Shown: positions 45,361-49,664 of the stretch, one piece after another
Layout of the letters: each line of letters opens with the position of its first letter
How positions within the stretch are numbered: position 1 is the first letter of the stretch
NCBI GenBank assembly: GCA_030614005.1
Contig: JAUWKS010000005.1
Coordinates: 41,964-105,963 of the forward strand
Direction: 5' to 3'
Length of the DNA: 64,000 bases
Source: Candidatus Heimdallarchaeota archaeon
GTDB lineage: Archaea; Asgardarchaeota; Heimdallarchaeia; JABLTI01
Made by a program: the position numbers and the translations under genes
Notes under the pieces: generated by a model
Seen by the model: only the letters and a program-made list of their open reading frames with translations
What the model was told of the DNA's origin: nothing
The model's database searches: none

Positions 45361-45563
45361 TAATAGATTTTCCTGAGCTAAATCAATTATTTGGATACCT
45401 TTATTTACATAAAACTGTAATACAATTACAGACAATCAGTCGAGATTAGCGGTAACGATATTTCAGATACTTACCTCTCTGATACAATCGTACTAATAAT
45501 CGCAAAGGAAGGCATTCGTACTTCTGCAAGGTTGATTTGTCAATTTACAAAGAGGTATAGCTG

Positions 45564-47174
45564 ATGAACAATAATACTCGCAAAGAGATATTAGAACAAA
45601 TTGCAGAAGGAATAATTTCTGCAGATGAAGGTTTTAGACTTCTTCAAAAATTTGAACGAGCAGATGCTGAAATTTCACATCTGGTTAACATCAATTCTCA
45701 TACGCCCGTTTCAACAGATGTTTTTAATGAAATATCTACAAACATTGCACCTTATATTAAACCAGAATTTTTGCTTGCATTACGCGAATTTAATTTCGAA
45801 GAAGGTATCACTCACTATGAGTTAAAAGAATTCATTTTGAAAGAGCTCAATAACGATTATCAGAAAGCTATAGCCAAATATGGTTATAAGAAACTCTCCA
45901 AGGATGACCTCTACAGTTTTCTAACAAATGGCATCACCCCAGAATATTTGTATGAGTTAAAAAGACGTGGCTATTCCGATATTCCAATATCTCAATTGAT
46001 CAAGATGGGCATTCACAATGTCGAAGTAGATTTTATTGATGATTTGAAGGACCAAGGTTATGATGGTTTATCTCCAAATCAATTAGTAAAAATGTCTCTA
46101 CGAGATGTCACACCCGACTTTATTTCTACATTAAAAGAACTCGGTTATCAAAATCTTTCTGTTAATCAATTAGTGAAACTTCAAAGTGCAGGGATAACTG
46201 CCAAATATATTATTGAACTTGAAAAGGCAGGATTTAGTGAACTTGCCCCCAGTATTTTGTTAAGTTTAATCACTGCAGGTGTAGATAAGGAATTTATCAA
46301 AAAAGCACGAAAGGAATTTGGAAAAGATATTCCATTAAACCAAATCCTGAAAATGAAAAAATATAGTGTAACAGATTCTTTCGTAAAAGAAATGAAAAGT
46401 TTGGGTTATGATAATCTCTCACCAAACCGTTTTGTTGAATTGAAAAAGAGTGGTGTAGATACCGGTCCAATAACAAATTTGGAATCTCTAGGCTACTCCA
46501 ATATTTCAGTCGATACTTTGTTGGAACTACAAAAACATGATGTTTCTATGAACTATATCAATAAAGTTCTTGATGCTGGGTTGAAAGTTAAGGATATTGA
46601 AGATTTTATCGAACTTTCAAATCATGATGTTTCACCACGGTTTATTGAACATGTAATGAAATTAGATCTAAATATCAAGGATATTGATGACCTAATCGAA
46701 CTCTCAAGTCATGATGTTTCTATTGAATATATTCAGAAATTGAAAGATAGAAATATCCAAATAAAAAATATCGATGAATTGGTAGAATTTGCAAGTCATG
46801 GCGTTACTCCAGAATATATTAGCAAACTTCAAAATGCGGGTTTGAAAATCAAAGATTTAGATGAATTGGTTGAATTAGCTAGTCATGATGTATCTCCACA
46901 ATTTATCATTGATTTACAACAATCTGGTTATGGAAAATTTGACATCGATGATATTATAGAATTACATGATAATGGAATAGATGTTAAATTCATGACAAAA
47001 ATAGCTGAACTCGGGTATTCTAAACTTGATGTTGACCAACTGATCGAGTTCCATAATCATGATATCGATGCAGCATTCATTCAAGCGCTTAAGAATAAAG
47101 GAATAAAAAAACTTACTCCTGATAAACTCATTGAAGCAAAAGAAAATGATTTATTGAATTTCTTTGATGATTGA
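45564..47174 (+). CDS. Tandem-repeat protein: N-terminal ~110-aa domain followed by ~14 consecutive 29-residue repeats (predicted alpha-solenoid)
   Basis: Units such as PNQLVKMSLRDVTPDFISTLKELGYQNLS / VNQLVKLQSAGITAKYIIELEKAGFSELA / IDELVEFASHGVTPEYISKLQNAGLKIKD / LDELVELASHDVSPQFIIDLQQSGYGKFD. SD AGAGGT precedes the ATG. Confidence 0.7.
   Translation: MNNNTRKEILEQIAEGIISADEGFRLLQKFERADAEISHLVNINSHTPVSTDVFNEISTNIAPYIKPEFLLALREFNFEEGITHYELKEFILKELNNDYQKAIAKYGYKKLSKDDLYSFLTNGITPEYLYELKRRGYSDIPISQLIKMGIHNVEVDFIDDLKDQGYDGLSPNQLVKMSLRDVTPDFISTLKELGYQNLSVNQLVKLQSAGITAKYIIELEKAGFSELAPSILLSLITAGVDKEFIKKARKEFGKDIPLNQILKMKKYSVTDSFVKEMKSLGYDNLSPNRFVELKKSGVDTGPITNLESLGYSNISVDTLLELQKHDVSMNYINKVLDAGLKVKDIEDFIELSNHDVSPRFIEHVMKLDLNIKDIDDLIELSSHDVSIEYIQKLKDRNIQIKNIDELVEFASHGVTPEYISKLQNAGLKIKDLDELVELASHDVSPQFIIDLQQSGYGKFDIDDIIELHDNGIDVKFMTKIAELGYSKLDVDQLIEFHNHDIDAAFIQALKNKGIKKLTPDKLIEAKENDLLNFFDD
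45890..47170 (+). repeat. 87-nt period tandem coding repeats (29 codons, ~14 copies) inside 45564..47174
   Basis: Periodicity read from the translation; approximate boundaries. Confidence 0.6.
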
Positions 47175-47553: not shown

Positions 47554-48753
47554 TTACTTCTGTAAATCTTCAATAGAATCTATTGTAATTTTCTGTAAAC
47601 ATATAGGGCATTTACCTTGTGTTTTTAACCATTCGAAGAGATGGGTAAGATGGGCTTTGGATTCACAGAGAGGACATTGACCAATTTCTTGATTTTGTGA
47701 AATAGGTAATTTGCAAACAGAACATTTGAGGGTTTCCTTGTTGCAATTTGAGCAAATTTTCTGAGTTTTAGAAATCGGGCTCATGCAATAATAACATACA
47801 AGTCCATTTCTTGCTTCTTTAAAGTTAAATATATTATCAATTTCAGCTCTAAATTGAGAATCGCCCAATAACATATTTTGAAGATCTTTCTCTTGTCGTC
47901 CTCTTTCGTTTATGATTAAATGTCTCGAGCCACTCTTACTATCAAATCGAGCTATCCAAAATAAATGGTAAAAAGTATCAACATTTTCAAATTTGGTTAT
48001 TTTGAAATCCTTTTTAATTTTCAAAGCATTTCTCATACCAAGAAACCATTGCCTTTTGAATTTCTCCACAATGCTATTCTGTATAGCAATCTTACCATTT
48101 GCTTCTTTTCTTAATTTTCTCGTTTGGTTTTTGAAATCAGTAGCTTGTTGTCTGTATTCTTTGTATTCAGGCGATGATTTATTAGAGGAGTACATTTCAG
48201 CATTTTTTTGAGCAATGTCTGCTTTTTGTTGAAGAGTGTCAGCTTCTGTAAATAATGGTTGCACTTCTTCTCTAGTTTTTTCTAAATCCAATACTAACTC
48301 ATCATGACGGTGAATATATATTTCAAATAAGCTAGTATAAACAATGCTAGGATCTAAAAACTGAATCACGGGTACATTAATAGTATACGAACCTAAAAGG
48401 TGCAAAAGCCTTTTTTCCTCTTTTGAATAAATCAATGTTAATGCTTTTCTTCCTCCTTTATCCAGTAAAAGTTTCTGAACAAAAGGAAATGAAAATTTAC
48501 CCAACATAAAATTACTTCTTGTATGAATTTTAGTTGAAGTATCAATAGGAGAATTCTGTTTTGTGTAGCTAATCTCAAATTGCCGTACTGGCCATAACAC
48601 TGGTTTGAGATAGGTTAATTTTTCAATTATTTTTCTCTGTAAGAGCCCCCCTTTCTTCCGATGCCTTTCGACTATTTCTTTGATTTTACTTTTCTCTAAA
48701 TTATTCTGAATAACGCGATAACTCACACGGGAAGGCTCCTGGAGAAAATTCAT
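47554..48753 (-). CDS. Coiled-coil protein with C-terminal zinc-ribbon plus RING-H2/PHD-like cross-brace zinc finger
   Basis: C-terminus CYYC-x9-CSNC (ribbon), then CSVC-x12-CPLC-x4-HLTH-x3-WL-x5-CPIC, i.e. Cx2C-x12-Cx2C-x4-Hx2H-x10-Cx2C with the WL....CPxC signature typical of RING-H2 fingers. Confidence 0.55.
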   Translation of the reverse strand: MNFLQEPSRVSYRVIQNNLEKSKIKEIVERHRKKGGLLQRKIIEKLTYLKPVLWPVRQFEISYTKQNSPIDTSTKIHTRSNFMLGKFSFPFVQKLLLDKGGRKALTLIYSKEEKRLLHLLGSYTINVPVIQFLDPSIVYTSLFEIYIHRHDELVLDLEKTREEVQPLFTEADTLQQKADIAQKNAEMYSSNKSSPEYKEYRQQATDFKNQTRKLRKEANGKIAIQNSIVEKFKRQWFLGMRNALKIKKDFKITKFENVDTFYHLFWIARFDSKSGSRHLIINERGRQEKDLQNMLLGDSQFRAEIDNIFNFKEARNGLVCYYCMSPISKTQKICSNCNKETLKCSVCKLPISQNQEIGQCPLCESKAHLTHLFEWLKTQGKCPICLQKITIDSIEDLQK

Positions 48754-48917: not shown

Positions 48918-49664
48918 ATGGTAAGGATTGATTATTGTTCGATTTGTGGGAAAATGCTGCATGGGATTGTACGTAATTGTAGTTATTGTGCTAGAACATT
49001 GTGTAGGAAACATTGTGTAAATGGATTGTGTCCAGATCATCAACATACGATGACAGCTAAACAATCAAAACAACTTGGACAACAAACTAATTCATCAATT
49101 TGGTTAATTATATGTGTATGTCCTATTGGATTATTTTCACTTATGTTTGGTATATTTGGTTTGATTTGGGGGGATGGCTTAATTTTTGGGCTTGTTAGTA
49201 TGTCAATTTTTGTTGTTGTTATTATTGTAACAGTTCTAATTCTTAGAAGGAATAGCAGACGTATTGATAACATTCATACTGAAATAAATCAAGATCGACA
49301 GCAATTAGTTAGCATTTGTCCAAATTGTGGCGGTCCAATTATGGCTAGTAATTCTTCATGTTCGAATTGTGGTACACCTGTTGATTATTTAACATCTCAG
49401 CCATTACCCACTCCCCAAAAAATAAGTAATGATCAAGAACACCACATACCTCCACCTCCTCCTGGTTGGACACCGAATCCACAAATCGACAGAGGTTTAC
49501 AAGAAATTGTTGATGCAAATCCTGGGTCCAAAATTGAAGTCACAGGATTTTATGATGAGGCAACAAATTCCGGATTTCATATTTGTAAGCATTGTAACAT
49601 GAGATTTGAAACCAAAGGTAATACTCGAGAGTGTCCTTATTGCCGAAAACCATTATATGGTTAA
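48918..49664 (+). CDS. Membrane protein with three zinc-ribbon modules (N-terminal, central, C-terminal), two TM helices and a Pro-rich linker
   Basis: CSICGK...CSYCAR...C.KHC; TM helices WLIICVCPIGLFSLMFGIFGLIWG and LVSMSIFVVVIIVTVLIL; CPNCGG...CSNCGT; PPPPPGWTPNP; CKHCN...CPYCRK. Confidence 0.55.
   Translation: MVRIDYCSICGKMLHGIVRNCSYCARTLCRKHCVNGLCPDHQHTMTAKQSKQLGQQTNSSIWLIICVCPIGLFSLMFGIFGLIWGDGLIFGLVSMSIFVVVIIVTVLILRRNSRRIDNIHTEINQDRQQLVSICPNCGGPIMASNSSCSNCGTPVDYLTSQPLPTPQKISNDQEHHIPPPPPGWTPNPQIDRGLQEIVDANPGSKIEVTGFYDEATNSGFHICKHCNMRFETKGNTRECPYCRKPLYG

Follow-up and report, generated by a model that had tools for sequence, protein, structure and literature searches.

A 29-residue helical repeat of bacterial M56/BlaR1-like proteins, joined to a SHOCT-like N-terminus in a Heimdallarchaeota protein

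The window analysed here (the whole stretch of 64,000 nucleotides, read on the forward strand) comes from a Candidatus Heimdallarchaeota archaeon (contig JAUWKS010000005.1, positions 41,964 to 105,963) and carries a gene whose 536-residue product consists mainly of tandem 29-residue repeats. The window protein is a new architecture, a SHOCT-like N-terminus plus a repeat array and no protease, of a widespread repeat family inside the well-known alpha-solenoid class; it is not a categorically new kind of system. The features of the gene are listed below with the amino-acid (aa) positions of the product, as read from an open reading frame (ORF) listing, a hidden Markov model (HMM) of the repeat unit and an AlphaFold2 (AF2) model with its per-residue confidence score (pLDDT).

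45552..45556, + strand: Shine-Dalgarno-like motif GAGGT, 7 nt upstream of the ATG, read from the sequence.
45564..47174, + strand: repeat-protein gene, a complete ATG-initiated ORF of 536 aa plus stop (ORF listing).
45576..45656, + strand: SHOCT-like N-terminal helix, aa 5-31 (PF22746 match).
45657..45719, + strand: low-confidence linker, aa 32-52 (AF2 pLDDT <50 at aa 31-43), the most variable stretch among orthologues.
45720..45893, + strand: two degenerate leading units, aa 53-81 and 82-110, in the 29-residue register, modelled by AF2 as helix pairs H51-64/H67-75 and H84-95/H98-104 and falling below the unit-HMM threshold.
45894..47111, + strand: fourteen canonical 29-residue units, aa 111-516, at exact spacing (DSSP on the AF2 model, pLDDT 92-98).
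46590..46937, + strand: units 9-12, aa 343-458, the block whose units resemble one another most (62-67% DNA identity between adjacent units), also modelled alone as a fragment (pLDDT 90.8).
47112..47171, + strand: partial unit and cap at the C-terminus, aa 517-536, with no residue differing among the three orthologues.

The product is acidic (isoelectric point (pI) 4.94, 91 D+E versus 63 K+R, net charge about -28) and contains no Cys and no Trp (physico-chemical scan). Its N-terminus is highly charged, and neither a signal peptide nor a transmembrane (TM) segment was found in it, the maximum 19-residue Kyte-Doolittle mean being 1.45. GC content of the repeat gene (0.30-0.33) is the same as that of its surroundings in a window of 32% GC; recent transfer of the gene was considered and rejected because the GC profile shows no compositional island. 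An Rfam search of the window gave no match, and a scan for sigma-70 promoters and intrinsic terminators was uninformative, the host being archaeal.

Periodicity of the protein is strict. Self-autocorrelation scored with BLOSUM62 against shuffles peaks at lags of 29, 58, 87 and 116 residues (z = 21.7, 19.8, 19.5 and 17.8), and every other lag has a z no higher than about 8. Divided into 29-residue segments from aa 111 on, the protein yields 14 full units to aa 516 with zero indels, and an HMM made from those 14 units recovers all of them at exact 29-residue spacing, so that the roughly 14 tandem 29-residue repeats proposed in an initial annotation of this DNA are borne out. With the two degenerate units and the partial one, the array comprises about 16.7 tandem helical hairpins. 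The coordinates that the annotation gave to the repeat protein, 45564-47174, are right for the whole ORF and too wide for the repeat itself, the first ~50 residues not being repeat. Similarly, its 87-nt period is real at the protein level and does not amount to a DNA repeat: Tandem Repeats Finder (TRF) detected no 87-nt array, the units are on average 45% identical to one another in DNA (maximum 67%) and 27% in protein, and the longest word common to any two units is 14 nt. The repeat is thus visible in the protein only.

Across the family, 1,844 units give the consensus L-S-x-D-E-L-[IV]-x-L-x-I-H-[GD]-V-[TDS]-P-E-[YF]-[IV]-x-x-L-x-x-x-G-[YF]-x-D, with which the consensus initially proposed agrees. 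Gly26 is the most informative position and His12 the second, while positions 3, 8, 24, 25 and 28 are the least conserved. His12 is present in 64% of units overall and in 89% of those in secreted stand-alone proteins, and the residue after it is G, D or N in 94% of units; 6 of the 14 units of the window protein lack the histidine. Judged from the sequences, the conserved positions look mostly like fold-keeping ones, namely two helix N-caps (S/D-x-x-E/Q and T/S-P-E), a glycine C-cap (G26), about 11 core hydrophobic positions and the hairpin histidine H12.

Two orthologous loci were found in a scan of GTDB genomes, both in Candidatus Heimdallarchaeota metagenome-assembled genomes: L001 (CSMAG_879) and L002 (HM7_B34), encoding proteins 90% and 86% identical to the window protein, respectively. 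Gene order at L002 agrees with that of the window. The exact sequence of the window protein has no entry in the contig collection. All three orthologues are exactly 536 aa long and their alignment is gap-free. Relative to the window gene, the two orthologous genes differ by 79-106 synonymous and 55-75 non-synonymous codon changes; since synonymous changes are in excess despite an assumed ratio of roughly three non-synonymous sites per synonymous site, the gene is under purifying selection. Each unit is far nearer to its orthologous unit than to neighbouring units, which points to an old array with a fixed copy number in this lineage; the likeness of units 9-12, with 62-67% DNA identity, marks an old internal duplication. 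The array had also been described as recombination-prone and possibly variable in copy number between strains. This expectation finds no support, because the orthologues are free of indels and the DNA of the units, with no shared word longer than 14 bases, has diverged too far for recombination.

An AF2 model of the full protein, built from an alignment of 46 homologues, has a mean pLDDT of 89.8 and a predicted template modelling score (pTM) of 0.70, with pLDDT 92-98 over the array. Secondary structure assigned with DSSP divides each unit into a 9-residue helix A, a 4-residue hairpin H-(D/G)-V-(S/T), a 9-residue helix B and a 7-residue linker. The pattern is unchanged when the four-unit fragment is modelled separately. 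At the N-terminus, aa 3-44 are modelled as a long helix with low to moderate confidence. By the model, the window protein belongs to the alpha-solenoid class, as tandem two-helix units whose best fold matches are designed helical repeat proteins, and the alpha-solenoid that had been anticipated was indeed obtained.

No curated family searched accounts for the repeat. A Pfam-A scan of the window protein gave only an N-terminal SHOCT-like match and noise, leaving the repeat unmatched; NCBIfam gave nothing meaningful, and phmmer against PDB sequences nothing below E 0.36. When eight homologues were compared with Pfam, Peptidase_M56 was followed over the array by only summed sub-threshold matches (HHH_5, DNA_pol_lambd_f, GapR and others). 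Similarly, 72 double units showed no consistent Pfam family, the most frequent being HHH_5 (7/72, best E 0.0057). We compared the repeat with families of known unit length: TPR (34), HEAT (37-47), ARM (42), ankyrin (33), PPR (35), Sel1 (36-44), LRR (20-29) and mTERF (~30). None of them matched the window protein in Pfam at E ≤10, and none is among the 25 most often matched of 69 families hit by the 72 double units at E ≤1. The mTERF family, to which a loose likeness had been suggested, was rejected as an identity: there was no Pfam or Foldseek match to it, and the modelled units have two helices of 9 residues each, compared with three in mTERF. With no match in Pfam, NCBIfam or natural PDB entries by sequence profile or fold, the repeat is of an uncharacterised type, as first thought; none of the curated families or solved natural structures searched contains it.

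The best PDB matches, by profile and by fold, are designed helical repeat proteins (8v2d, O43_129 component A; DHR series 5cwo and 5cwf). Queried with a 72-sequence double-unit profile, the PDB yielded only 8v2d, a component of a designed nanocage (E 9.2e-5), and, marginally, parts of AlaRS and carbamoyl-phosphate synthetase. In Foldseek, the full model matched 8v2d (E 7.6e-4, TM-score ≤0.23) and other de novo designed repeat proteins, and the four-unit fragment matched 8v2d (TMq 0.52), with non-significant BurrH and TAL-effector matches after it. Neither query had a significant natural fold match in the PDB, and a Foldseek search of BFVD with the four-unit fragment gave nothing significant. 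The designed proteins share with the window repeat short two-helix units and a loop motif G-[LV]-[DT]-P-[DE]; they differ in being artificial and in having a 33-residue period. We note that chain J of 8v2d is the best match by both routes through its 'G-[LV]-[DT]-P-[DE]-x-I' hairpin and capping motifs. This likeness is one of generic capping and loop motifs and implies neither homology nor function.

True homologues of the array are found in bacteria, in the C-termini of M56 (BlaR1-like) proteins. A word-indexed search gave 46 matches, nearly all of them proteins of 600-930 aa with PF05569 (Peptidase_M56), carrying source names such as M56 family metallopeptidase or beta-lactamase regulating signal transducer and coming from named sources that include Acidobacteriota, Zixibacteria, Vicinamibacteria and Sulfotelmatobacter. 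An exhaustive HMMER search of 1.84 billion cluster representatives (50%-identity clusters) returned 2,928 proteins at E ≤1e-3, 1,706 at ≤1e-10 and 298 at ≤1e-30. Homologues occur by the thousands in GC-rich bacteria. They have 4-15 units at 28-29-residue spacing, share the unit consensus (H12, G/D13, V14, Y/F18, G26) and are 25-35% identical to the window array. E values against M56 proteins range from 1e-63 to 1e-77, and the window array belongs to this uncurated M56/BlaR1-like C-terminal repeat family. The bacterial homologues differ from the window protein in having an HEXXH M56 domain, several TM segments, a beta-rich domain and BlaI-M56 operons. The window protein is not itself a BlaR1/MecR1-type M56 protease, having no Peptidase_M56 match in Pfam and no TM segment.

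From among the best-scoring relatives, 233 were sorted by architecture with a regular-expression and hydrophobicity heuristic. The array follows an HEXXH/M56 region in 188 of the 233 (about 80%); a further 27 stand alone and have a signal-like N-terminus, 13 (among them the window protein and several fragments) stand alone and lack it, and 5 have other arrangements. In sampled M56-fused proteins, a strongly hydrophobic segment directly precedes the C-terminal region (for example, aa 325-343 of protein P0018), and a beta-rich 'RDAGTFxFEG' domain precedes the array in sampled fused and stand-alone bacterial proteins alike. The bacterial repeat regions have a pI of 4.3-5.7. Two loci (L005 and L006) are BlaI (Penicillinase_R)-M56 operons in which the array is fused to M56. 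At a third (L007, 262-5053), an operon comprises genes for BlaI (Penicillinase_R), for an M56 protease and for two signal-peptide repeat proteins in tandem (339 and 350 aa), a layout repeated with one repeat protein at L009; the protease can therefore have the array as a separate, secreted partner. Two reports describe an extracellular C-terminal domain and a cytoplasm-facing protease in BlaR1 (PMC9834060, PMC3356374). In InterPro, the most frequent architecture of M56 proteins includes a C-terminal region without an identifiable domain, and a BlaI-like gene is found near about 96% of M56 proteins (PMC13492132). The bacterial array would thus serve non-beta-lactam BlaI/BlaR systems as a sensor or accessory module outside the cytoplasm. 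One further relative (P0041, 325 aa, on a 1.5-kb contig) has an ABC-transporter ATPase domain fused to five repeat units, which would place an array in the bacterial cytoplasm; on so short a contig, an assembly or gene-calling artefact is possible.

At the N-terminus, aa 5-31 of the window protein match PF22746 (SHOCT-like_DUF2089-C) with E 1.3e-5 and 25.0 bits, the gathering cut-off being 27 bits. Among relatives, the orthologue at L001 (27.7 bits) and protein P0174 (32.7 bits) exceed this cut-off, and the orthologue at L002 (23.4) and the Heimdallarchaeota protein P0063 (25.1) score below it; the precomputed Pfam entry of P0063 is PF22746. SHOCT-like domains have been reported mostly on intracellular proteins, and the prediction is that they tether intracellular domains to the membrane's inner face (PMC11237479).

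The layout of N-terminus plus array recurs in P0063 (62% identity, a fragment), in P0129 and P0195 from Kariarchaeaceae and in a metagenome protein (P0185). All four resemble the window protein in their short N-terminal helix, two degenerate units, 29-residue array, acidity and lack of TM segments. P0129 and P0185 are 24-31% identical to the window protein over the N-terminal region, fall below the SHOCT-like Pfam score and have 9 and 8 canonical units by the unit HMM, compared with 14 in the window protein; unlike the latter, they have His12 in every unit and are encoded behind an LRR protein gene. A profile search with the N-terminal 110 residues found two close Heimdall fragments only, and the archaeal clade is poorly sampled. 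With P0129 as query, bacterial M56 proteins were again retrieved. The SHOCT-like plus array layout is thus a small, diverged architecture of Heimdallarchaeia.

Gene neighbourhoods of relatives include two arrangements of note. At the Kariarchaeaceae-type loci L010 (3128-4621, + strand) and L003 (359-1867, + strand), a gene for a leucine-rich repeat (LRR) protein of ~500 aa (LRR_4, E 1e-34) lies directly upstream of the repeat gene; the two LRR proteins are 35% identical (E 2e-92), making this a conserved gene pair. At L011, one short contig that is probably bacterial (51% GC), a gene for a DUF2089 ZnR-HTH-SHOCT-like regulator (748-1167, + strand) is immediately followed by that for P0174 (1202-2404, + strand), a protein with a SHOCT-like domain, a Pro-rich linker and repeats, and the adjacency of two SHOCT-like proteins hints at pairing. 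None of the conserved partners of related loci was found in the 64-kb window by tblastn, whether the LRR protein, DUF2089, the M56 domain, the BlaI protein or the 'RDAGTFxFEG' beta-domain served as query.

We infer from the lack of export signals that the window protein is cytoplasmic, and the interpretation that we favour, with moderate confidence, is a cytoplasmic, possibly membrane-proximal alpha-solenoid binding scaffold or adaptor made of a SHOCT-like helix and the bare repeat module. Of the parts of the M56-linked proteins, the archaeal one has the repeat module alone, joined to a SHOCT-like domain. Its N-terminus may hold the protein near the membrane or near another SHOCT-bearing partner, and the long acidic solenoid surface would capture a protein or a small ligand. 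Several points weigh against this interpretation. The SHOCT-like score of the window protein is just under Pfam's cut-off, and membrane anchoring by SHOCT-like domains is a published prediction only (PMC11237479). The binding role of family members is read from their architecture, and the loss of His12 from six window units means that this array may not act as the bacterial ones do. The flanks of the gene in the window contain no conserved functional neighbour: a Fer4 protein, a TrkA_N channel and zinc-ribbon proteins look unrelated, and tblastn found no counterpart of the LRR neighbour of Kariarchaeaceae-type loci.

Four other explanations were weighed. That the periodic pattern is a compositional or non-coding artefact of AT-rich DNA would fit the low GC content of the window and the lack of a DNA-level tandem repeat; an intact ORF of the same length in three genomes with its synonymous excess, thousands of homologues in GC-rich bacteria and a confident AF2 model refute it, leaving it a negligible probability. 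The archaeal protein might instead be exported and act at the cell surface, for example as an envelope-binding repeat, given that in the great majority of classified relatives the array comes behind a TM segment or a signal-like N-terminus. The window protein lacks both a signal peptide and a hydrophobic segment, its N-terminus is highly charged, the 'RDAGTFxFEG' domain of sampled bacterial proteins is absent from the window, and SHOCT-like domains are reported mostly on intracellular proteins (PMC11237479), all of which make export very improbable. A more probable alternative, yet still an unlikely one, is a metal or pH sensor in which a ladder of hairpin His12 residues binds metal or titrates, shifts the shape of the solenoid and, in bacteria, triggers the M56 protease. 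The high information content of His12, its enrichment in secreted stand-alone proteins and the G, D or N that usually follows it are consistent with such a ladder. The Penicillinase_R repressor family (BlaI/MecI/CopY), moreover, includes the copper-responsive repressor CopY. However, P0129 and P0185, which are archaeal and not secreted, conserve His12 just as well, so that a structural role between repeats fits as well, and the window protein lacks His12 in 6/14 units, has no Cys and matches no known metal-binding family.

An array that binds nucleic acids with one unit per contact along DNA, and that has its relatives in helix-hairpin-helix (HhH) motifs or in TALE/BurrH proteins, would explain the summed sub-threshold HHH_5 and DNA_pol_lambd_f matches of some homologues and the few double units that weakly match HHH_5. 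TALEs bind DNA, and like the window repeat, TALE/BurrH proteins form a superhelix from two-helix units, there of ~33 residues; the four-unit fragment has a weak likeness to BurrH (4cj9, TMq 0.41) and to dHax3, a TAL effector (TMq 0.36-0.39). These fold matches are non-significant (Foldseek E 1.5 for 4cj9 and 4.3-8.3 for 4osv and 4ot3, TMq ≤0.41), there is no sequence match, and both period and consensus differ. Resemblance to HhH/HHH_5 consists in a helix, a tight h-G-h hairpin and a second helix. Nevertheless, the window protein has no HhH match in Pfam, the Foldseek lists contain no HhH structure, and the AF2 model lacks a connector helix of the (HhH)2 type. The acidity of the window protein and of the bacterial repeat regions speaks against DNA binding, and the bacterial arrays, which follow the last M56 TM segment or a signal peptide, are predicted to lie outside the cytoplasm and away from DNA. 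Nucleic-acid binding is accordingly a far-fetched reading, on a par with export, and a cytoplasmic scaffold or adaptor is the interpretation we retain. A bolder extension of it is possible, and we hold it only tentatively: the repeat would be a distinct, unnamed sensor fold that reads an envelope signal, possibly through its His ladder, for a sizeable share of the class of M56 proteins with no identifiable domain. The bare module would then have been taken over by Heimdallarchaeia and put together in one protein with a SHOCT-like domain as a cytoplasmic signalling scaffold, whose partner is an LRR protein in some lineages and a DUF2089 transcription factor in one (probably bacterial) locus.

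Several Cys-cluster proteins surround the repeat gene in the window. Its convergent neighbour (47554-48753, - strand) encodes 399 aa with a C-terminal Cys/His cluster and has sub-threshold RING-like matches (zf-RING_2, E 0.0046, 17.6 bits against a cut-off of 27.3; Prok-RING_1, E 0.016); it is possibly a RING-type protein of Asgard archaea. At L002 (7733-8932), too, the repeat gene is adjoined by an ORF of this length and direction. A second zinc-ribbon-rich protein with a predicted membrane stretch is encoded at 48918-49664 (+ strand; DZR, E 5e-5).

For Asgard archaea, the interest of the finding is modest: a module that is overwhelmingly bacterial in our sample is reused inside an archaeal cell, and this analysis found no link of the window protein to eukaryote-like systems. 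As a very short and regular two-helix solenoid whose look-alikes in the PDB are only computer-designed, the repeat may interest repeat-protein engineers. It is not a one-off, since it appears to be widespread (about 2,900 clusters at 50% identity) while lying outside the curated libraries searched. The repeat merits a family definition of its own and the attention of those who study BlaR-like signalling. Such a definition would provide some members of the largest class of BlaR1-like receptors still without annotation (PMC13492132) with a named domain and would direct experiments toward the signals of non-beta-lactam BlaI/BlaR systems.

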